Source: a virus (taxonomy: Duplodnaviria; Heunggongvirae; Uroviricota; Caudoviricetes). From it: a stretch of DNA of 64,000 nucleotides. Shown here piece after piece: positions 3,429 to 63,972 of this stretch. The DNA is taken from the IMG/VR virus record IMGVR_UViG_3300028888_000113. The stretch is one strand, 5' to 3'. A program made the translations under genes and the position numbers. The notes under the pieces are model-generated. The model did no database searches, was not told where the DNA came from, and saw only the letters and a list, made by a program, of their open reading frames with translations. How positions within the stretch are numbered: the first letter of the stretch is position 1; the number at the start of each line of letters is the position of its first letter.

Positions 3429-3791
3429 ATGTACTGCATTACACAGGATTTTGGAAAAACAAATAGAGTATGGCAAATATGTGTACTGCAGGTTTGCGTA
3501 AATGTAAGGACTGCTATTATTTCGATAATGGCTGGTGTTGTTGGAAAGGCCGTGAAACACATGGTGCAAGTACCGAGTGTGATGACGGCTGGTGTGATCC
3601 TGAACAATTTAAAGATATGCAAGGATATGGCAATATTTGAATGTACGAGACGTGCACAGTGTCGTGACTGTCAGCACATAACAAAAGAACTTCATGGTAT
3701 GGTATATTGGAGTTTCTGCAAGCTGACAGGCAAGCGAATATCTCCAAGAGATCTATCGTGTGGTAAATTTTTATGGGAGGGCTATAGATGA
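3429..3791 (+). CDS. Cys-rich hypothetical protein (true start may be internal)
   Basis: 120-aa ORF. C-terminal C..C...C..C cluster (CTRRAQCRDCQ...C). Confidence 0.3.
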   Translation: MYCITQDFGKTNRVWQICVLQVCVNVRTAIISIMAGVVGKAVKHMVQVPSVMTAGVILNNLKICKDMAIFECTRRAQCRDCQHITKELHGMVYWSFCKLTGKRISPRDLSCGKFLWEGYR

Positions 3792-3985
3792 ATTTCCGTC
3801 AGGCAAAGAAAATCGTGCATGGCAATAGTTCTGTGCATAAGAAATACAGAAAGCGCAGACCGCCTTATATCAATGAGGAAGGTCAGAGTGTCTGGCCCTC
3901 GATACATGATGTTGACATCATCCGCAGGGCTATGAGAGTGTTTCTACATCATTATAAAAAACATAAAAAGAAAGATCTATCATGA
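3788..3985 (+). CDS. Small basic hypothetical protein
   Basis: 65 aa, K/R/H-rich, overlapping stop/start with neighbours. Confidence 0.25.
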   Translation: MNFRQAKKIVHGNSSVHKKYRKRRPPYINEEGQSVWPSIHDVDIIRRAMRVFLHHYKKHKKKDLS

Positions 3986-4386: not shown

Positions 4387-4956
4387 ATGAGACCGACAAA
4401 AGAACAATTACAGAGTTGGGCCAGACGGATCCATGCAAATGCTACGGCACACGGCTGGCACGAAGAAGAAAAGCCAGGTTATCACTGGCTTGGAATGGTT
4501 ATGACCGAGGTGGCAGAAGCTATTGAGGCTGACAGAAAAGGACGTAGATTCTCAGAAGAAGCAAAAGAGAAATATCTTGCCGTTACAACAGATAGCGAAG
4601 GTTATCATGTTACTGTTGCCATCATGAAAATGGCCTATGAGGATTACGTCAAAGGAACTGTTGAGGAAGAGTTTGCAGACATCTGTATTCGTATTCTCGA
4701 TACTGCATATGAACTTCATAGAGAAAACATGAATTGGTATGGTGGAGAATATCAGCCTTGCACTCGCTCTTTCACCGTTCAGGCATTTGTACTTGTGAAG
4801 GAAATTCTGAATACAGGCATGATGAATCTTACTGAGGCTATCTATTACATGTTTGCATGGGCAGAACGTCTTGGAATAGATCTCGCTTGGCATATCGAGC
4901 AGAAGATGGTGTATAACGAACTCCGTTCTTATAAGCATGGGGGTAAAGCATATTAA
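4387..4956 (+). CDS. MazG-like nucleotide pyrophosphohydrolase
   Basis: All-alpha pattern: TEVAEAIEA...EEFADICIRILDTAYEL...GIDLAWHIEQKMVYNELR resembles the MazG NTP-PPase EExxE/D motifs. Confidence 0.5.
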   Translation: MRPTKEQLQSWARRIHANATAHGWHEEEKPGYHWLGMVMTEVAEAIEADRKGRRFSEEAKEKYLAVTTDSEGYHVTVAIMKMAYEDYVKGTVEEEFADICIRILDTAYELHRENMNWYGGEYQPCTRSFTVQAFVLVKEILNTGMMNLTEAIYYMFAWAERLGIDLAWHIEQKMVYNELRSYKHGGKAY

Positions 4957-10401: not shown

Positions 10402-10421
10402 AATCCCTAAATTTTAATTTG

Positions 10422-11606
10422 TTAATACCTGAAAACTTTTTTCTCTGTTATTTTGGTCAGACCATCGTCTAAGACTCCGAGTCTGAGTATTTCCTTTACC
10501 ATGAATAGCCTCCGTCTTATTCTGTAAGAAGCAGTATGCTGGAAGATTCCAAGATAGGAGTTGATACTTCTCAGCACTTTCTTCGGACTGGAGAAATCGA
10601 GCATTTTCAGCTTCAATTCTATTCTCTGGAGCGAGTGCCTTGAGATATAGATCCTCCAGGGCTTGATGAAGGAACCAAGAAACTCCACTCCCTGATGCAC
10701 TTCCGAAATCGTTAGTTTGCCTCTGTGTAGTTCCAATCCCAACTCTTCCTTGAGAAATCTCTGAATGTCTGGCACCAACGACAGAAGCCAATCTTTGTCC
10801 GATGACACTACGGCTGCATCGTCCACATATCTGCCGTAATAGCGACATTTCAGCACTCTCTTCATGAACTGGTCGAACACGTTCAGATAGACATTGCTGA
10901 ATAGTTGAGAGGTCAGGTTTCCTATCGGAAGACCCAATCCTTCCAACAGATTCAGCATTGACTTGGCTGGGTCGAGACCATCCCAATCCGAAGGATCGCC
11001 ACAGATGATGCAGTTCAATTTCGGATCGAGCATTACTATCACCTCTGTAAGATAGCAGACAAAGTCCATGTCGAGCCTGTCCTGCCATAGCGCGGGATGA
11101 TATTTGTTGATCCTGTGAGTGGCCATGTTCCTCAGAGACTTCAAGGCTATTTCCAACAGCCTGCGACGAACTATGTGCATGAAGTAGCCCCTGATGTCTA
11201 AGTGCATCACATAGCACTTGCGTTGCCAATTCCTCGATTCCTTCCTGCAGAAGTCCTCTATACGATGTATGCCGTAGTGGGTACCACGTCCCTTTATGCA
11301 ACTGTAAGAGTCTATGATAAACGTCCTCTCGTAGAGACCGTGCGTATAGTTGAAGTACAGGTGATGCACTATCCTGTCTCTGAACATTGCAGCGAAGATC
11401 TCTCTCTTCTTCGGATAATCGACAATGAAGCATTTCGACGGGAGAGGCTTGTAACGACGATAATACAAGTCGTCGCACAATTCTTCCATATTCCTTTTCA
11501 GGTCTTTTGCCCATTTCTTCACGTATGAGCGATTGGACTTGTGCTTCCGTGCGTCGTAGTAGGCAACATACAGGTCGAACAGAAGTCTCTCCCGTGTAAG
11601 AGTCAT
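10422..11606 (-). CDS. DGR reverse transcriptase
   Basis: RT motifs including YVDDAAV (motif C) and LGF..KPW. TR lies 38 bp upstream. 394 aa, typical DGR RT size. Confidence 0.9.
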   Translation of the reverse strand: MTLTRERLLFDLYVAYYDARKHKSNRSYVKKWAKDLKRNMEELCDDLYYRRYKPLPSKCFIVDYPKKREIFAAMFRDRIVHHLYFNYTHGLYERTFIIDSYSCIKGRGTHYGIHRIEDFCRKESRNWQRKCYVMHLDIRGYFMHIVRRRLLEIALKSLRNMATHRINKYHPALWQDRLDMDFVCYLTEVIVMLDPKLNCIICGDPSDWDGLDPAKSMLNLLEGLGLPIGNLTSQLFSNVYLNVFDQFMKRVLKCRYYGRYVDDAAVVSSDKDWLLSLVPDIQRFLKEELGLELHRGKLTISEVHQGVEFLGSFIKPWRIYISRHSLQRIELKLKMLDFSSPKKVLRSINSYLGIFQHTASYRIRRRLFMVKEILRLGVLDDGLTKITEKKVFRY

Positions 11607-11643
11607 GCTTCTCTATATTTAAAAGGATGATTGCAGTTGAGTG

Positions 11644-11821
11644 CTGAACCGGGCGCACCGCGAAGCCGTTGTACCGGTTGTTGTTGTTCTGAGGATTCAC
11701 CCCACCACTGTTGAAGTTCAAGTTCCGAGCGTTGGCTGCGGAGTTGAACGAAGCAGACCAGTAGTTGCCATTGCCGCCACGGTTGTTCCACGACGCGCCA
11801 TTGCCGTTGCCAGAGCAAGGG
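11644..11821 (-). repeat. DGR template repeat (TR)
   Basis: 178-bp stretch matching 12675-12852 with 19 mismatches. All 19 are at TR adenines on the coding (-) strand. TR translates N-rich (AAC codons) in the VR frame. Confidence 0.9.
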
Positions 11822-11978
11822 AAGAAGGCTTTTCGGTCACCGCCTTTTACGAAGACCACAATGGGTTGCACTAAGCAAGACAATGTGGCATCTTTGCTTT
11901 TTCCCGAATCACGAAGACTCAGGACGGATGACCTGTGAACTTCTATCTGAACCATCCTTATAGGTTTTACATTTGTTA

Positions 11979-12539
11979 TCAGAACATAGCAGAAACTTGT
12001 TGTCTCAACTGACGTAAGAACTCCCATGCCTCCATAGGAGATTTCGACTCAATGGGATATGACACTATCCTTGCGAGCACATCAGACATACGTGTGATCC
12101 TTGGTGCCGCCTCAGACACCTCACGATCCTCTCGCTTAGTCTTCTTCTGCTCATTCATCTGAAGAGATTCTTTCCAGTCATCGACACCTTTTCTGAAAGT
12201 CTCAGCGTCAACGTTTAAATATTCTTCTGGAAGAGGTACGATAATCTCGATGTGGTTGTCATCGACAGGATTGAACTTCACTGTTCCATCATTGGGAATA
12301 TACTTTCCCAAAGATGCGACAGGAAATCCTACCCATGCTTCAATGTAGTTGTCCTTTAACCTCTTTGCAGAGATATTCAATGGCTTGTTCTTTGCCTCGC
12401 CCATTGGGAACTTCGTCATCAGCCATGCGCTCCAGTCGTGTGCACGGTAGAAATTATTCTCTTTCAGAAGATGGATTACTCCATACTGATCAGAAGCCTG
12501 TCTGTTGCTTTCTATTTCAACGATTTCTGCTATTGTCAT
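11979..12539 (-). CDS. DGR accessory protein candidate (Avd position)
   Basis: 186-aa ORF located between target gene and TR, the canonical accessory-gene slot. No recognisable motif, so the call is positional only. Confidence 0.35.
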   Translation of the reverse strand: MTIAEIVEIESNRQASDQYGVIHLLKENNFYRAHDWSAWLMTKFPMGEAKNKPLNISAKRLKDNYIEAWVGFPVASLGKYIPNDGTVKFNPVDDNHIEIIVPLPEEYLNVDAETFRKGVDDWKESLQMNEQKKTKREDREVSEAAPRITRMSDVLARIVSYPIESKSPMEAWEFLRQLRQQVSAMF

Positions 12540-12580
12540 TTTTTCTCTTTTTAGTTTATTTATTCCCTCCCATTGCGGAG

Positions 12581-12626
12581 TGTGCCTTGTGGCCGCTTGT
12601 GGAGCGGCCTTGGTGGCACACCCCGA
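12581..12626 (-). other. GC-rich stem-loop immediately downstream of VR (DGR homing-associated hairpin candidate)
   Basis: GTGTGCC..GGCCGCT TGTGG AGCGGCC..GGCACAC nested inverted repeat ~50-90 bp 3' of the VR/IMH end. Confidence 0.5.
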
Positions 12627-12671
12627 ATGATTGGGATTGGTTTGTTCTCTCTTGGTTGGCCAAGATAGAAG

Positions 12672-13787
12672 TTACTGAACCGGGCGCACCGCGAAGCCGT
12701 AGCACCGGCTGCTGTAGCTCCGAGGAGTCACCCCACCACTGCTGAAGCTCAAGTTCCGAGCGTGGGCTGCGGAGTAGAACGAAGCAGACCAGTAGTAGCC
12801 AACGCCGCCACGGGGGTACCACGACGCGCCATTGCCGTAGCCAGAGCAAGGGCAGAAGAGAAGATTACCGTTAATCTTTGACTTCAAATACAAGCCTAAG
12901 ACGCCGTTTACGGTCACACGCTTATCTGTTGTAGCAGAGTCTATGACGGTGCCGTTAGCGTAAATGAAATCGCAATTTGCAAACAGTTCTGCGTACTCTT
13001 CTGTTGTCGGCATACGCCAAGGTGCACCGAGATTTACACGGGCAGCGTCCTGAGAAGCAGCGAGACTTGCCGTGATACCACAGCCAGGAGTCTGACCGTA
13101 GATAGAATCGGACTTATAGCCGTTACCAGCGTCATTCTTCGAGTTGTCCCATGTTCCGAAGTCGTGGTTGAAACTTGAGTTATCCTTTGGATTGAACATC
13201 TGAGTATTACCCCATGACACAAAAGAACACTCATATTGGAACTCAGAGGCAGCGAAGCCATTGGCCTGAGTAACGTCGATGTTCTTCTTTGCCCAGAGCA
13301 AACCAGATGGTAAGCCCATGTCAACGTACAGATCTTCCTGTACAGATGTTTTCTCCTGTCCGAGAATGCCGATGATGTTCCAGTTCGTACCGTCGTACTG
13401 TAACTGTACTACGGTCCGAGCCTTTACGACTCCTGCCTGCAGGGTATTACCCATGATCTTGATGGGCTTTGCACCTGTACTGTTCACGTTCAGTGTTGCT
13501 CCTGCTACGGCTATTGCAGACGTGAACAGAACGCTCACGATACCGTTTTTCAGAAGAATGAAGTCGCTGATGGCTACGGTCTTTGCCTGTGTCGTGGCTT
13601 CAGTGCTGCACGTTCCGATACCGTTACCAGCCTTTGCCATGTCGCGTACCAACTGCTGGGCAGGGTATTTCCCTGCGGGAGTACCGTCAGGATTAAATAT
13701 CATGACTGTCTGGGTAGCACCGGGAGCTGCGTTTGGCAATCCAGCCTGTACCGCTTTCAATACGTTTGCTGTTGAAATAGTGTCCAT
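12672..13787 (-). CDS. DGR target protein, C-terminal DUF1566/C-type-lectin-like variable domain (putative receptor-binding protein)
   Basis: C-terminus CSGYGNGASWYPRGGVGYYWSASFYSAAHARNLSFSSGGVTPRSYSSRCYGFAVRPVQ is encoded by the VR. ...YGFAVRPV is the characteristic ending of Bacteroides DGR CLec/DUF1566 targets. Confidence 0.8.
   Translation of the reverse strand: MDTISTANVLKAVQAGLPNAAPGATQTVMIFNPDGTPAGKYPAQQLVRDMAKAGNGIGTCSTEATTQAKTVAISDFILLKNGIVSVLFTSAIAVAGATLNVNSTGAKPIKIMGNTLQAGVVKARTVVQLQYDGTNWNIIGILGQEKTSVQEDLYVDMGLPSGLLWAKKNIDVTQANGFAASEFQYECSFVSWGNTQMFNPKDNSSFNHDFGTWDNSKNDAGNGYKSDSIYGQTPGCGITASLAASQDAARVNLGAPWRMPTTEEYAELFANCDFIYANGTVIDSATTDKRVTVNGVLGLYLKSKINGNLLFCPCSGYGNGASWYPRGGVGYYWSASFYSAAHARNLSFSSGGVTPRSYSSRCYGFAVRPVQ
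12675..12852 (-). repeat. DGR variable repeat (VR) at the 3' end of the target gene
   Basis: Homologous to the TR. Differs only at positions where the TR has A. The 3'-terminal 26 nt (GC-rich IMH-like) are identical to the TR. Confidence 0.9.
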
Positions 13788-13830: not shown

Positions 13831-14394
13831 TTAGGATTTTGTAACCACCGTCTTATCCATCAGCTTTGCCACTTCTGTAAGGAGTTGTTTGGCTGTATAG
13901 GTAGTTCCGTTGTAGGTAATGCCTTCAACGATTTCACCAAAGGCACCTTCAAGCGTGGTGATTCTCGCATTCAGACTCTTTATCCAGTACTCTACGGAGG
14001 CATCGGTGAATAGTTCCCAATCACTGTGGATGGTGGTATCGTCAACGACGAATGCAATCCTGCCGTTCACGGTATGGGTCACGAAGGCCCCGTCCTGCAC
14101 CGCCATCACTACAGGAGAATGGCTCGTCTGTCTCAATGAGCGATACAGCACACCGTTGATACCGATGACAGAGTTTTTCGCAAATGTACTCGACGGTGTG
14201 AGCGAGTTTACATCTACGGGAATGAGGGTTTCTAATTCGCTCAGCTCTGTCTTTGAAGCGAGATTAGCAAGGCACCATGCGTAGATGGGCTTGTAGATCT
14301 TCACAAGCAAAGCCTTCAACAAATTATGAAATGCCGCATTACTCATATTGCGTCTCTTTTTTGAAGTTAAAAACTTGGCTGGCAGGATAGCCAA
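13831..14394 (-). CDS. Tail fibre-like protein with a shared C-terminal domain
   Basis: C-terminal region (LTPSSTFAKNSVIGINGVLYR...SDWELFTDAS) is paralogous to the C-terminus of 15828-16709. Confidence 0.45.
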   Translation of the reverse strand: MAILPAKFLTSKKRRNMSNAAFHNLLKALLVKIYKPIYAWCLANLASKTELSELETLIPVDVNSLTPSSTFAKNSVIGINGVLYRSLRQTSHSPVVMAVQDGAFVTHTVNGRIAFVVDDTTIHSDWELFTDASVEYWIKSLNARITTLEGAFGEIVEGITYNGTTYTAKQLLTEVAKLMDKTVVTKS

Positions 14395-15827: not shown

Positions 15828-16709
15828 CTATAGTGAATTAATGATGGTTTCAAGTCTTGCAATCCTTTCTTCGAGTTGTTTGAATCTGAGATCGCATGAT
15901 GCGTCTATCCATACTTCCCAATCAGAGTTCAGGGTGTTCGTTACCTTCACGAAGCACGTATGACCGAGAATCGTCTGCACGACAAACTTTCCGTCATCGG
16001 CCATGAAGTTGAAGGGTAGGGTGTTCGTTTCACTTTTTGCTCTGTAGATTACACCGTCAATGCAGATGATGGCATTCTTTACGAATGTACTTGATGGGCT
16101 TAGTGTGCTTTCTTTCACAGGGATCAAGGCGTAGCCACCTTCCGCTACGACTTTATCAGCAACATTGCCTGCAAGTTCCTGCTTCTCTGCTGTTGTCATG
16201 GAACTATAATCAAGGTCTTCGCCTTTATCACCCTTTTCACCTTTCACGTTCACGGTCTTCGTGGAACCGTTGCGGTTAGTTATCGAGAGTATGTTTCCGT
16301 TGAGAGTGGCATCGACATTCTCTGCACCTTCAATCTGATTCCTTGCATTCTCGCCTTGTTGCTGTGCAAATGCAGCTTTCTCTTCTGCAAGTCTGGCAGC
16401 TTGGTCGGCCAGTGTCGCCTTGTCATTGGCAAGGTTGGCCTTCTCTTCTGCAAGAGCGGCTTTTGCGTCAGCATTGTTGGCAGATGCACCAGTGCGATAC
16501 ACATTCACGATGCACCGCCAATAGTCAGAGGTCTTTGCCGATCCGTCTGCATTGTAACCAGGAAGTGCATGGCCCTTGTTGTTGTCAACGAGGGAGAGCC
16601 ATTCCGATTTGTATTGGTCCAGACAGGTCCACATCGATCCGTAATTCGTAGTAGCGTTATACGGAGCATCGGTAGGGTATGGAAGTATTTGTCCGAAATC
16701 TATATCCAT
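15828..16709 (-). CDS. Tail fibre protein (coiled-coil/collagen-like segment, shared C-terminal domain)
   Basis: Ala-rich coiled coil (AALAEEKANLANDKATLADQAARLAEEKAAF), short GEKGDKGE stretch, C-terminus paralogous to 13831-14394. Confidence 0.5.
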   Translation of the reverse strand: MDIDFGQILPYPTDAPYNATTNYGSMWTCLDQYKSEWLSLVDNNKGHALPGYNADGSAKTSDYWRCIVNVYRTGASANNADAKAALAEEKANLANDKATLADQAARLAEEKAAFAQQQGENARNQIEGAENVDATLNGNILSITNRNGSTKTVNVKGEKGDKGEDLDYSSMTTAEKQELAGNVADKVVAEGGYALIPVKESTLSPSSTFVKNAIICIDGVIYRAKSETNTLPFNFMADDGKFVVQTILGHTCFVKVTNTLNSDWEVWIDASCDLRFKQLEERIARLETIINSL

Positions 16710-38792: not shown

Positions 38793-38841
38793 GATGTTTT
38801 AATTGATAAGTTAATATTGATGATTTCAATGTTATCCTGAG

Positions 38842-38914
38842 TGGCGGGAAGCGGACTCGAACCGCTGACCTCAAGGCTATGATCCTCGCGAGCTACCAAC
38901 TGCTCCATCCCGCG
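38842..38914 (-). tRNA. tRNA-Met (CAT)
   Basis: I folded it by hand. Acceptor CGCGGGA/TCCCGCC (1-72 C.C mismatch), D-arm TGGAGCAGTTGGTAGCTCG, anticodon stem CGAGG/CCTTG with loop ATCATAG, T-loop TTCGAGT. Confidence 0.75.
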
Positions 38915-61544: not shown

Positions 61545-62483
61545 ATGAAAGAATTGAGAGGGCTCACTTATGAGCAAAACAAGAAGTTTCGCTACGCAAT
61601 AGAGTGCGGCTACTTCGACACATGGGAGCAGGACCCTCGAAAGTGGAAGCATACTTTCATTGGTGCTTTCCTTTGGAAATACCCTTCAAGGGTAAAAGTC
61701 CTGAATATACTCAAGGATATTATCGGCAATATGCCTGTATGGGAAGACATCAATGATGAAACATTGCGCGACCTTATTGATGAACTTTCTGCAAATGAAC
61801 TTGCACCCGGATCTATACGAACGATGTGTGCAGAACTGAAAGCCGTACTAAACGAGAATGCCAGGCGCATACCTTCTACAGACTTCGCAAAGATTCTGTC
61901 TATCAAAGGTACGGCTACTCAGTCCACTTATCTCACAGTCCACGAAATGGAATTGTTCTTGTCTTATGTTCCAAAAACAGATATTGAGCATTTCGTACAT
62001 CGTACCTTCTGTGTGTCTATGCTTACTGGCGCACGTCAGGTTGACGCTGCCCGTCTTACGATAAGTAACTGTGACATGGAAACAAACATGCTGTCCTATG
62101 TTCCTCAGAAAACTCCAGGGCTTATCGTCAGAGTTCCCGTTGATGAAAGACACGGCTTGCGCAATTTCCTTGCCGACGTGAATCTTGAGCCGTGTTGCCT
62201 TGATACGTTCAATGATGTGCTTAGAAGAATATGCAGCGAGATAGGAATTGAAACGGTATGTACCGTTGTCAAGGCAGGAAAGAATATCACAGAACCCAAA
62301 TGGAAACTTGTCAGCTCTCACACGGCCAGACGAACGTTTGCCACGAACCTCTATCTTGCTGGTGTATCTCTTGAAGACATAGCAATGATGATGGGACACG
62401 GAAAGAATATTGAAACGACTAAGCGGTATGTCTGTGCAGAGCGCACACTGAATCCAAATGTCATGTCTTACTTCCAGCCATAG
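61545..62483 (+). CDS. Tyrosine recombinase (Bacteroides-type integrase family)
   Basis: C-terminal catalytic signature SSHTARRTFATNLYLAGVSLEDIAMMMGHGKNIETTKRY (HxxR...GH...RY). Co-directional with the 50-61 kb array. Confidence 0.7.
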   Translation: MKELRGLTYEQNKKFRYAIECGYFDTWEQDPRKWKHTFIGAFLWKYPSRVKVLNILKDIIGNMPVWEDINDETLRDLIDELSANELAPGSIRTMCAELKAVLNENARRIPSTDFAKILSIKGTATQSTYLTVHEMELFLSYVPKTDIEHFVHRTFCVSMLTGARQVDAARLTISNCDMETNMLSYVPQKTPGLIVRVPVDERHGLRNFLADVNLEPCCLDTFNDVLRRICSEIGIETVCTVVKAGKNITEPKWKLVSSHTARRTFATNLYLAGVSLEDIAMMMGHGKNIETTKRYVCAERTLNPNVMSYFQP

Positions 62484-62485
62484 TC

Positions 62486-63712
62486 TTAGGGCAGCTCACT
62501 GCCCACCAAATAACCAATAACTCTTCTGACGGCATTATCAATCTTTCGCTGATCGGTGGCCATATATCGCGACGTAACATTCTTAGCCCATGAGTGGCCG
62601 AGGCACATGCCTATAGTTCGCTCAGATATATCAAGGTCATTGGCAGCGATAGAACCGAACGAGTATCTGGCTGAGTAAAGGGTAATCTCAGGACATATAG
62701 GCTCATACTCCATCTTACGGAGTTTTCCTACTTTGTCCTTTACCTTATGAGAAGGTCCAACCTTCTGCAGAGCATCATTGCAGGCTCTTGCGAACGAACG
62801 ATAGGAGTTTCTGCAGTCCATAAATCCGGTGAGCCATCCTTCATCCGATGGATAGCGATCAATGATTTCTTGCGCCTCTGGAAGTACAGGCAGCGTGATT
62901 GTCCTAATCTTTGTGGAACCTTGCTTGTTGGTCTTCTGCCTTACGAATGTCAGATGACCGTCTTTTATTGCGTCTGATTTCAGACTCAGCAGATCTACGG
63001 GGTTGATGCCAGCAAGGTAGAAACTCAGAAAGAAGAAGTCAACGTATGGCTTCTGCCATGACTCGCAAGGGTAGTCACGCAGTCTTCTGAGGTCTTCAAC
63101 GGATATATTGTTTGGAACGGTTTCTTCTTCCACGATATGATAATCCAAGAAGGGATAGTTCTGTGTAAGGCCACGCTTTCGTGCCCAATTGAAGACGGCA
63201 CGTATATTTCGCAGTTCCTTGCCGACACCGTTGATACTCATTCCTTCTTCTATATAGTGTGATCTGAACGATTCTATCCACTCTTTATCTATTGACAGGC
63301 CTGCCTTGCTATCAAAGTCCAGGACCTTACGGGCTGTCAGTTCATAGATGGATCGTGTTTGTTCCGTTTTTGTTCCGGCAAACTCGTAGATGTAATCGGA
63401 TAGGGTAGAGGTTTTCGGTACCATGCCGAAGACTTTCTCTTGGATTTCCTTCTTGAGTTGTTTGTTATCAGTCTTGGATAGTTCAGACTGCAGGCACAGA
63501 ACTTCAATGTCAGCAAGATACTTACCGAGAAGTGTAGTCTTAGCTTTCCCAGCTTTATCAGCTTTGGGAAAGAGCATACCAACCAGTTTGTCGGTAGTAG
63601 TGAGGCCCGTATTCACGAAGAAACGGCCTTGCTTGTTCTTTACTACGACGTACACAGGATATGTGCCGTCAGAGTTAGATCTCGTTGTGTCAACGTAAGG
63701 ATGGATTCTCAT
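62486..63712 (-). CDS. Tyrosine integrase with N-terminal Arm-DNA-binding domain, adjacent to tRNA-Gly
   Basis: 408 aa. N-terminal arm-binding-like domain, SAM-like core-binding domain, catalytic LYSARYSF...LGHS...TSRY. Lies 190 bp from the 3' end of tRNA-Gly. Confidence 0.8.
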   Translation of the reverse strand: MRIHPYVDTTRSNSDGTYPVYVVVKNKQGRFFVNTGLTTTDKLVGMLFPKADKAGKAKTTLLGKYLADIEVLCLQSELSKTDNKQLKKEIQEKVFGMVPKTSTLSDYIYEFAGTKTEQTRSIYELTARKVLDFDSKAGLSIDKEWIESFRSHYIEEGMSINGVGKELRNIRAVFNWARKRGLTQNYPFLDYHIVEEETVPNNISVEDLRRLRDYPCESWQKPYVDFFFLSFYLAGINPVDLLSLKSDAIKDGHLTFVRQKTNKQGSTKIRTITLPVLPEAQEIIDRYPSDEGWLTGFMDCRNSYRSFARACNDALQKVGPSHKVKDKVGKLRKMEYEPICPEITLYSARYSFGSIAANDLDISERTIGMCLGHSWAKNVTSRYMATDQRKIDNAVRRVIGYLVGSELP

Positions 63713-63901
63713 TTGAGTTGAATTTTGTTTGTTAATACTTGCTGACCATTATTTCGGTCAGCATTCTGATTGCTGTTTGATTTGCTGACTTTTTTCAGCC
63801 CTCAAAAACCCGCAAAAACGGCATTTTTCAACTCAGATTTGCTTATCTCTAAGCCTTTTCTTTCATAGGTTTTCGGCGTAACCGCCTGATTATCAATGTA
63901 G

Positions 63902-63972
63902 AGCGGAATACGGGAATCGAACCCGCCTCCCAGGCTTGGGAAGCCCGTGCACTACCGATGTGCTAATTCCGC
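63902..63972 (-). tRNA. tRNA-Gly (CCC), probable prophage attachment site
   Basis: I folded it by hand. Acceptor GCGGAAT/ATTCCGC, D-arm GCAC-ATCGGTA-GTGC, anticodon stem CGGGC/GCCTG with loop TTCCCAA, T-arm GCGGG-TTCGATT-CCCGT. Confidence 0.85.

Follow-up and report, generated by a model that had tools for sequence, protein, structure and literature searches.

The mechanism of diversity-generating retroelements (DGRs) is known almost wholly from the Bordetella phage BPP-1, which can dispense with neither the accessory protein Avd nor the RNA of its 3' spacer. Across DGRs in general Avd, essential in this prototype, is present in 74% of elements, where it is typical but not defining. The MSL (MutS-like) accessory genes constitute Architecture D of Wu et al. 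2017 (PMC5758913), encode proteins of 112-283 aa with a pI of 7.2 +/- 1.7, and co-occur with avd in 16/16 cases (PMC5758913); Msl has also been described in Bacteroides pilus DGRs (bioRxiv 2024.11.15.621889). CH1 genes constitute Architecture E, Lineage 3a, the Avd-less DGRs of Bacteroides and relatives (PMC5758913). Their products have 160-169 aa and a pI of 4.7, and the RT locus of the single named example spans only 831 nt (PMC5758913).

The locus described here is a genuine DGR, a variant of the known kind that is ordinary in principle, and it is highly probable (roughly 0.92) that it represents a functional DGR located among the tail genes of an uncultivated phage or prophage of siphovirus-like type. 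It lies within a stretch of 64,000 nt, the whole of the DNA that was analysed (the window), which also holds tape measure, major head, portal and terminase genes. On the minus strand the genes follow the order target (13787-12672), accessory (12539-11979), TR and RT (11606-10422). An earlier sequence-only reading had called this arrangement canonical; the order stands, but the accessory product is MutS-domain-I-like and not Avd. No near-identical DNA was found among GenBank phages, which rules out Hankyphage or any other deposited phage, and no att repeat of the tRNA-Gly end occurs within the window. The host probably belongs to the Bacteroidales, since relatives were found in one Bacteroidales MAG and one Prevotella MAG. 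The features of the cassette are as follows.

10422..11606, minus strand: DGR reverse transcriptase, 394 aa (RVT_1 8.7e-11; phrog_1423 7e-83)
11624..11636, minus strand: 3' strand of helix P1 (CTGCAATCATCCT), in the 37-nt TR-RT spacer; pairs with 11958-11947, closing TR into a loop
11644..11821, minus strand (extended, 11644..11827): TR core from ungapped TR/VR comparison, identical to the core of the sequence-only reading (11644-11821)
11835..11958, minus strand: RNA domain 5' of TR, with the P1 5' strand (11958-11947, AGGATGGTTCAG) followed by P2/P3/P4 (11933-11835)
11979..12539, minus strand: accessory gene, 186 aa, pI 5.5, MutS-domain-I-like (MSL-type), not Avd
12564..12636, minus strand: 73-nt bipartite hairpin between target stop and accessory start; outer stem ...GTGCC/GGCAC..., inner stem GGCCGCT/AGCGGCC
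12645..12670, minus strand: proximal hairpin, 4 nt past VR; A/T-rich stem of ~10 bp, loop CCAA; weakly supported
12675..12858, minus strand: VR (core of the sequence-only reading 12675-12852; homology reaches 12858)
12672..13787, minus strand: target gene, 371 aa; N-terminal portion followed by a C-type-lectin-fold domain at the C-terminus, where VR encodes residues 312-371

The repeat pair and its reverse transcriptase

Ungapped comparison of TR (11821..11644) with VR (12852..12675) on the minus strand gives 178 nt with 19 mismatches, and TR carries A at every one of them (8 A>G, 7 A>T and 4 A>C). With 40 A among the 178 nt of TR, the chance of 19/19 is 4.8e-13, and the hypergeometric count gives 7.5e-15. 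Recomputation thus returned the 178-bp pair with 19 differences, all on TR adenines, that had been read from the letters (p about 5e-13), and on realignment the mismatches within the core remained adenine-only. The homology continues for another 6 nt on the 5' side (to 11827/12858), where there is one non-adenine mismatch, TR T against VR G at 11822/12853, so that 19/20 mismatches fall on TR adenines when the extension is counted. This substitution produces F312C in the target; F, as in TR, is found at residue 312 in 12 of 14 population variants.

Of the adenines, 39/40 stand at codon position 1 or 2 of the VR frame, and TR contains 17 AAY codons (14 AAC and 3 AAT). Translated in the VR frame, TR reads PCSGNGNGASWNNRGGNGNYW... 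and VR reads PCSGYGNGASWYPRGGVGYYW...GFAVRPVQ, which agrees with the earlier description of an N-rich TR set against a VR-encoded C-terminus; VR ends 0 nt ahead of the target stop codon. The last 26 nt of TR and VR are identical and GC-rich, as had been noted, with 73% G+C, but position 11669, which holds the second A in the final AAC codon and is unchanged here, is variable in relatives, and the truly invariant 3' block is therefore 25 nt. Divergence between the repeats begins only past ...GGTTCAG (TAACTT after VR, CACTCA after TR), and the block's designation as an IMH stands only as 'IMH-like', there being no IMH/IMH* difference inside the repeat and no GC-rich GRNA hairpin. No second VR or further TR-like copy was found within the window, and scanning IMG/VR with a TR pattern in which A was replaced by N gave no match.

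The adjoining RT retains the fingertip F/R/I residues as well as the DGR-specific motifs, [I/L/V]GxxxSQ of domain 4 (IGNLTSQ) and the catalytic box YxDD (YVDD). Its closest solved relative is 8ub7_A, a 328-aa RT (E 4.5e-27) that is presumably the Bordetella phage bRT, whereas group II intron and retron RTs match at 2e-7 or weaker. The nearest RTs of GenBank phages are at most 37% identical, with Bordetella phage records among them.

Direct repeats of this length do occur in phage tail genes, and the upstream paralogues have a 107-aa domain in common, which could suggest a plain duplication whose copies drifted apart through point mutation or gene conversion, without reverse transcription. That explanation is effectively refuted by the restriction of all 19 core differences to TR adenines (p about 5e-13), by the placement of these adenines at codon positions 1-2 and by the adjoining DGR-type RT. 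Moreover, the adenine pattern recurs in 21 independent loci, and non-adenine differences do not dominate in relatives.

Variation among related loci

In five related contigs VR differs at 13-20% of positions, while the rest of the cassette is 0.7-2.7% divergent in four of these relatives and 15% divergent in the fifth (L036). Relatives with 23-35 VR differences have kept TR the same or almost the same; in L037 it is identical, and all 23 VR differences lie at TR-A sites. Sequence passes from TR to VR, as substitutions at non-A positions of TR are mirrored in VR (2 in L001, 3 in L038, 7 in L035 and 9-10 in L036, counts in which one or two positions fall on blastn gaps or are not listed). Within one 90% cluster there are 57 distinct target sequences against 14 for the accessory protein, and the target variation in the population is concentrated at TR-Asn codons. 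The VR heterogeneity that would be expected of a working element is thus present in public assemblies, where VR varies and TR and the flanks do not, this diversity being read from consensus contigs of different samples. The arrangement also recurs: of 26 examined related loci with a member of the accessory family, 23 have the VR-accessory-TR repeat pair, and the mismatches are A-biased in 21 of these 23. The two others are L018, with mixed mismatches, and L012, with none, its VR being equal to TR over 189 nt.

Near relatives (0.7-2.7% divergent) with wholly different VRs, together with TR substitutions copied into VR, imply homing after the lineages split, and from these comparisons the element has evidently been active recently. 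A decayed DGR, still holding the TR/VR pair and the RT gene but with a VR that cDNA no longer reaches, would be compatible with the absence of any sign of activity in this one genome and with L012, where the identity of VR to TR means that not every copy has been diversified. Such decay is nevertheless very improbable, because all three ORFs (RT, accessory and target) are intact, the catalytic motifs are kept, and the closest relatives have completely different VRs into which TR substitutions have been copied.

Structured RNA and the accessory protein

The region 5' of TR folds into a conserved RNA domain. Tested on a MAFFT alignment of 20 loci (A7), the proposed pairs form in 91.9% of cells compared with 35-49% in slid controls, two-sided changes occur at 23/28 pairs, and 0/500 shuffles were as good; a U-G pair kept in 18/20 loci marks the sense strand. 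Helix P1, which joins this domain to the TR-RT spacer, forms a duplex of roughly 9-17 bp in 20/20 loci, with a mean energy of -17.1 kcal/mol for cognate strands, -13.4 for non-cognate and -8.0 for shuffled ones, and the cognate mean was reached in 0/5000 permutations. The P1 5' strand does not adjoin TR but is set about 120 nt upstream.

On the other side of the accessory gene the conserved structure is the 73-nt hairpin, which begins 38 nt after VR, with its GC-rich inner stem 65 nt after VR, and has A/C-rich internal loops. It was found in 23/23 non-identical loci; with the loci aligned by MAFFT only, its pairs form in 75.5% of cells compared with 34-42% in slid controls, 24/27 pairs show two-sided changes, and 0/500 shuffles were as good. 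Its U-G pairs do not establish sense-specificity, because the sense and antisense folds are equally stable. The hairpin known from other DGRs is GC-rich, with 7-10 bp and a 4-nt GRNA loop, and lies 4-34 bp downstream of VR (PMC3240598); beside VR no GC-rich GRNA-loop hairpin of this consensus is present in that form, the proximal hairpin being A/T-rich with loop CCAA. The proximal hairpin is a possible, though weakly supported, counterpart of the BPP-1 target hairpin; a small hairpin occupies this site in only roughly half of 23 related loci, so that it does not rank as a conserved feature. No Rfam family covers either the 73-nt hairpin or the TR-flanking RNA.

The hairpins downstream of VR may have a part in retrohoming. 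Alternatively, the 73-nt hairpin and the structures flanking TR could be only terminators or mRNA-stability elements with no such role, as the intergenic position of the 73-nt hairpin at the end of a structural gene and the equal stability of its two strands might suggest. This is unlikely: no T-run follows the 73-nt hairpin and a coding-strand terminator scan reports nothing there, its sequence blocks and A/C-rich internal loops are kept though the accessory proteins are only about 50% identical, and the helices on either side of TR correspond to the upstream:downstream duplex that BPP-1 cannot do without.

The accessory protein belongs to an unnamed family of at least 626 representative clusters at 50% identity, always positioned between the target and TR-RT. 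Its similarity to MutS domain I is weak yet consistent, and the link emerged only via distant family members and structure. Pfam gave nothing at E<=10, phmmer and a close-family profile found nothing relevant in the PDB, and hhalign of the close-family profile with MutS was not significant. A tblastn search found no copy of the protein in GenBank phages, and the family is absent from 50,697 GenBank phage records. Aligned to MutS, the protein matches the Phe of the Phe-X-Glu motif, and the Glu is Arg here.

No ORF from 7659 to 17707 matches an Avd-type or four-helix-bundle family in Pfam, NCBIfam or PHROG, the cassette has no space for an additional gene, and none of the roughly 25 related loci examined carries avd. 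The MutS-like protein is most likely the dedicated partner of an Avd-less machine, in which it may act as an RT/RNA cofactor or as a shield against host mismatch repair; in Bacteroides, host MutS reduces DGR output 5-10-fold. Tentatively, the locus might represent a large uncharacterised Avd-independent clade of phage DGRs in which the MutS-domain-I protein and the 5' three-helix RNA together stand in for Avd's barrel and the RNA of the 3' spacer. In such a clade the MutS-like protein would either hold the template:primer duplex in place for the RT or bind the mismatch-dense cDNA:VR heteroduplex and shield it from host MutS, and the 73-nt hairpin would be the clade's target-site marker.

Target protein, proposed mechanism and known systems

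Structural modelling gives the target C-terminus a C-type-lectin (CLec) fold like that of Mtd, TvpA and TaqVP, and the nearest Pfam subtype is Lcl_C/DUF1566, in keeping with the DUF1566/C-type-lectin-like C-terminus proposed by the sequence-only reading. Sequence similarity of the target to any solved structure was not detectable. The position of the gene and one structural match suggest a tail-fibre-like protein, for which receptor binding is the presumed role. No family annotated as tail fibre in Pfam or PHROG matches the target or its neighbours, and the Bacteroides DGR targets with a CLec fold include pilus adhesins, so that a real DGR might instead diversify some other ligand-binding protein of the virion or cell surface and leave host range unvaried; this is considered fairly improbable.

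With a tail-fibre-like target, diversification most likely proceeds as follows. The TR transcript would be folded by its flanks, the 11958-11947/11636-11624 helix looping out TR beside the three-helix domain. From a putative priming site the 394-aa RT would copy TR into cDNA, misincorporating opposite the 40 template adenines, and this cDNA would take the place of the final ~180 nt in the target gene. In the C-type-lectin-fold domain as many as about 20 codons, including 17 AAY codons, would be randomised, which could alter the choice of host receptor bound.

For phage biology this outcome is an expected one, namely another gut or rumen phage varying its receptor-binding tip. For the DGR mechanism it offers a natural and evidently active clade without Avd, in which the RT is paired with a MutS-like protein and the structured RNA lies on the other side of TR. 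Both the minimal set of protein and RNA for adenine-mutagenic reverse transcription and the purpose of MutS-like DGR proteins thereby become testable. A four-part cassette of ~3.4 kb with covariation-defined RNA boundaries may also provide an alternative chassis for DGR directed evolution in Bacteroidales.

Among the CLec-fold DGR proteins Mtd, TvpA and TaqVP, the target has the C-type-lectin/FGE-like fold in common, VR-bearing here as well, whereas the remainder of the protein differs. The element resembles the CH1 systems in being Avd-less, from Bacteroidales, and equipped with a small acidic accessory protein without a motif recognisable from a single sequence; it differs in the 186 aa and pI 5.5 of that protein and in its 394-aa RT, as judged from the published description of CH1. 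With MSL it shares the resemblance to MutS's mismatch-recognition domain and a size and pI within the reported range, but all described MSL DGRs carry Avd, and this element and its roughly 25 relatives do not. Compared with BPP-1 (mtd-avd-TR-brt), an acidic 186-aa MutS-domain-I-like protein stands in place of Avd, the TR-RT spacer is only 37 nt long (most relatives have 27-47 nt), and the large folded RNA domain lies 5' of TR instead of in the 3' spacer. There is no visible IMH/IMH* difference, and the conserved 73-nt hairpin, from 38 nt downstream, takes the place of a GC-rich GRNA hairpin by VR. The two systems nonetheless share the order target-accessory-TR-RT on one strand, a VR at the 3' end of a CLec-fold gene of tail-fibre type, adenine-specific mutagenesis with AAY codons, and RTs with IGxxxSQ, YxDD and the fingertip residues, and P1 has its analogue in the 'cPRT Stop', the upstream:downstream duplex that encloses TR in BPP-1 (bioRxiv 2023.10.23.563531).

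The DGR cassette and its repeat pair

The element is a diversity-generating retroelement (DGR), because all of the testable defining features of such elements are present. Both the observation and the DGR interpretation put forward in the sequence-only reading are judged correct, including the order of target, accessory gene, TR and reverse transcriptase (RT) on the - strand, which the ORF coordinates bear out:

13787-12672, - strand: target ORF, 371 aa
12539-11979, - strand: accessory ORF, 186 aa, next after the target
Between the accessory and RT ORFs, - strand: non-coding stretch with the TR
11606-10422, - strand: RT ORF, 394 aa, last of the four parts

Ungapped comparison of the TR (11821-11644) with the VR (12852-12675) gave 19 mismatches in 178 nt, and, as had been claimed, all 19 have A in the TR, the downstream copy (8 A>G, 7 A>T and 4 A>C). 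Given 40 A among the 178 TR bases, the probability of adenine-only mismatches by chance is 4.8e-13. In the target frame, 39 of the 40 TR adenines occupy codon positions 1 or 2, the AAY codons comprise 14 AAC and 3 AAT, and the TR translation reads PCSGNGNGASWNNRGGNGNYW..., with PCSGYGNGASWYPRGGVGYYW...GFAVRPVQ as its VR counterpart. In the last AAC codon the second A shows no change in the window but varies elsewhere. No third TR/VR copy was found in the window. The core of the repeat limits first proposed holds, but the 5' boundary does not, as homology reaches 6 nt further 5' and includes one non-adenine mismatch (TR T / VR G at 11822/12853) resulting in F312C. Residue 312 is the TR-like F in 12 of 14 population variants, and one target protein variant (P0006) has C as the window does. 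A 537-aa ORF (10414-12027, - strand), which crosses the TR and shares bases with the RT in another frame, is not a gene but a mechanical artefact arising from the scarcity of stops in the TR region; fused ORFs of this kind (509-513 aa) were also called in two related loci, L008 and L036.

The RT matches RVT_1 (8.7e-11) and the phage RT family phrog_1423 (7e-83). Its closest solved structure by far is the 328-aa RT of PDB 8ub7 (E 4.5e-27), which we take to be the Bordetella phage bRT, whereas group II intron and retron RTs match at 2e-7 or weaker. Alignment to 8ub7 shows that DGR-specific motifs are present: GLPIGNLTSQLFSNVY aligns with GIPIGSLTSQLFANVY and RYVDD with RYMDD, and the fingertip F, R and I are kept. 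In bRT these fingertip residues touch template and dNTP (bioRxiv 2023.10.23.563531). The nearest GenBank phage RTs are at most 37% identical and include those of known DGR phages of Burkholderia, Pseudomonas, Vibrio, Bacteroides and Bordetella.

Retrohoming in relatives and the setting of the target

An RT protein identical to the window's is encoded on 10 public contigs. Locus L002 shows no difference from the window, and others are ~98% identical; relatives were also found in a Bacteroidales MAG, a goat-rumen Prevotella MAG and 21 IMG/VR contigs. Five relatives were each compared with the window across the whole 3.4-kb cassette (blastn).

Table. Differences of five related loci from the window (locus; VR differences of 178; rest of cassette; TR)
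L037; 23, all at TR-A sites; 0.83%; identical to the window's
L001; 30; 0.73%; 2 non-A changes
L038; 27; 2.39%; 3 non-A changes
L035; 32; 2.72%; 7 substitutions and indels
L036; 35; 15.25%; 10 non-A changes

In L001, L038 and L035 every non-A TR substitution is mirrored at the homologous VR position, at an offset of 1031 nt. In L036 mirrored changes are listed for 8 of the 10; of the remaining two, one coincides with a gap in the blastn alignment and the other (11661) is not listed. Such non-A co-variation combined with adenine hypervariation bears the mark of TR-to-VR retrohoming that went on repeatedly after the lineages split, and this phage lineage has had an active DGR in its recent past. 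Among the same phages, distinct sequences per 90%-identity cluster number 57 for the target versus 14 for the accessory protein. Residues 1-311 are nearly invariant in 14 aligned target variants, and the positions of the TR AAY codons carry many residues. VR heterogeneity is seen both across public contigs, compared as consensus sequences from different samples, and in the 57 target variants. In L012, the locus of the Bacteroidales MAG, VR and TR agree at every one of 189 nt (3676-3864 and 4706-4894), reflecting either an undiversified (freshly reset) VR or assembly collapse.

The window encodes a major head protein, an SPP1-type portal, a large terminase, a 2182-aa tape measure and a 2001-aa protein, and its genome is siphovirus-like. 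Small unannotated genes come after the structural genes, followed by the DGR. Two unannotated genes upstream of the target (13831-14394 and 15828-16709, - strand) have a common 107-aa C-terminal domain (42% identity, E 7e-25) and are probably paralogous fibre modules. Downstream of the DGR are a DUF4376 protein, two predicted membrane-protein ORFs (read from sequence) and DUF5675. The target itself has sub-threshold Pfam matches to Lcl_C (formerly DUF1566) and Fib_succ_major, and a sequence search found no similar solved structure. The proposal that it sits among tail fibre genes thus draws on its position after the tape-measure region and on structure, but not on annotation as a tail fibre. 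In another related locus, L016, two VRs (1254-1440 and 2191-2373) match one TR; a 570-aa target homologue with CLec-type Pfam matches comes from an IMG/VR contig of the same length as that of L016 (36,129 bp), which makes a duplicated CLec domain likely. A tRNA-Met (38841-38914) lies inside the phage region, and a tRNA-Gly (63901-63972) adjoins two integrase-family genes (61545-63712) near the right end; searching the window for an att repeat matching the tRNA end found none.

Conserved RNA structure flanking the TR and hairpins beyond the VR

The ~150 nt from the accessory stop to the TR are strongly conserved across 20 loci and include a three-helix structure at 11933-11835, in which hairpins P3 and P4 are enclosed by P2. 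The model was built with RNAalifold, extended by hand and tested on a MAFFT-only alignment, where 91.9% of cells are paired versus 35-49% with partners slid by 1-3 columns. Two-sided changes occur in 23 of 28 pairs, and compensatory cells number 111 versus 35 in shuffles, with none of 500 shuffles reaching the observed values. A U-G pair kept in 18 of 20 loci places P2-P4 on the sense strand. The P2 arrangement is also present in two much more distant loci, and the TR-flanking RNA had no match in Rfam. In L040, a short metagenomic contig from a distant relative, the start of this domain is duplicated upstream of the accessory gene (1-170 and 780-835), possibly through rearrangement or as an assembly artefact.

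A long-range helix, P1, pairs AGGATGGTTCAG (11958-11947), just upstream of P2, with CTGCAATCATCCT (11636-11624), which starts 8 nt beyond the TR. A duplex of this type, roughly 9-17 bp, was found in 20 of 20 loci, with stabilities of -17.1 kcal/mol for cognate, -13.4 for non-cognate and -8.0 for shuffled strands (0 of 5000 permutations reach the cognate mean). P1 resembles the 'cPRT Stop' of the prototype Bordetella phage DGR, BPP-1, an essential duplex of stretches that lie upstream as well as downstream of TR that is predicted in 207 other DGRs (bioRxiv 2023.10.23.563531), in joining both sides of the TR. However, its 5' strand is ~120 nt from the TR with the three-helix domain in between, and, also unlike BPP-1, most loci have a spacer of just 27-47 nt from TR to RT start codon. 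As the P1 5' strand and the 3' ends of both TR and VR contain a nearly invariant GGTTCAG heptamer, the downstream P1 strand could alternatively pair with the TR end, which, we infer, would suit a template:primer switch.

Two hairpins lie downstream of the VR:

12670-12645, - strand: small A/T-rich hairpin, starting 4 nt past the VR, loop CCAA
12636-12564, - strand: bipartite hairpin of 73 nt, located after the target stop codon and before the accessory gene

The small hairpin, present in only about half of the relatives, is A/T-rich with a CCAA loop and so falls outside the phage DGR consensus of GC-rich hairpins with a GRNA loop (PMC3240598). The 73-nt hairpin, built from an outer stem and a GC-rich inner stem of 7 bp with A/C-rich internal loops and a C/A-rich loop, is present in 23 of 23 non-identical loci; 75.5% of cells pair versus 34-42% in slid controls, with two-sided changes in 24 of 27 pairs (a level that none of 500 shuffles reached). 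Sense and antisense folds do not differ in stability, Rfam gave no match, no T-run comes after the hairpin, and no terminator was called there on the coding strand. It may serve as a target-site marker, as a cruciform or as an RNA element in the transcript that carries accessory gene, TR and RT.

The accessory protein and comparison with known systems

Searches with the accessory protein gave no match in Pfam (even at E<=10), NCBIfam, PHROGs or PDB sequences, and no tblastn match among 50,697 GenBank phage records. Its family comprises 163 clusters at 90% identity by word-indexed search, and 626 representatives at 50% identity by exhaustive profile search (300 with E<=1e-10), nearly all of 175-200 aa. 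In every locus with available flanks (members ~50-65% identical, plus one ~27% identical) the gene lies between a CLec-type target and TR plus RT, without Avd. The VR-accessory-TR arrangement was found in 23 of 26 loci examined, 21 of these 23 having adenine-biased mismatches (L012 has none and L018 is mixed). In another relative, L017 (IMGVR_UViG_3300032007_000078), the accessory ORF has in-frame TAG codons and TAG replaces the CAG of relatives in the TR, suggesting that this phage may read TAG as glutamine.

The accessory gene does not encode Avd, and the similarities of its protein point instead to MutS. Bacterial MutS structures rank first in Foldseek (E 0.06-0.4, probability up to 0.96), none significant by E-value. 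Pfam MutS_I is matched individually by 26 of 57 distant family members (best E 2.3e-4), and any other Pfam family by at most 2 of the same 57. With hhalign, residues 21-83 of a broad accessory profile align to residues 27-82 of what we take to be the E. coli MutS N-terminus (E 0.002, probability 13%), placing F30-Y31-R32 opposite the mismatch-binding F36-Y37-E38 and G71-F-P opposite the G-I-P motif. Individually weak, these lines agree with one another, and the protein is read as a divergent MutS domain I plus ~75 residues of helices. Such a protein may act as an Avd substitute helping the RT to hold RNA, or as a mismatch-binding shield of the cDNA:VR heteroduplex, the latter suggested because host MutS lowers Bacteroides DGR output 5-10-fold.

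MutS-like accessories have been described as the MSL proteins (112-283 aa), but every MSL-bearing DGR is stated to have avd as well (Wu et al. 2017, PMC5758913), which is missing here. A second family, CH1, has no motifs and occurs in Lineage 3a DGRs of Bacteroides and relatives (Wu et al. 2017, PMC5758913); these DGRs are Avd-less like the present one, and CH1 proteins differ somewhat in size and pI (160-169 aa, pI 4.7, versus 186 aa, pI 5.5), so that the present family may or may not coincide with CH1. Earlier work has reported DGRs without Avd, accessories of MutS-like type and RNA duplexes that flank the TR, whereas we found no description of a MutS-like accessory and TR duplex without Avd, of the 5' three-helix domain or of the conserved distal hairpin. 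That the element stands for a DGR clade independent of Avd, in which a MutS-like cofactor goes with a permuted RNA scaffold, is a tentative and rather doubtful proposal. Overall, the element has the same working outline as BPP-1, but differs from it in the accessory protein, the topology of the RNA scaffold and the target-side hairpins.
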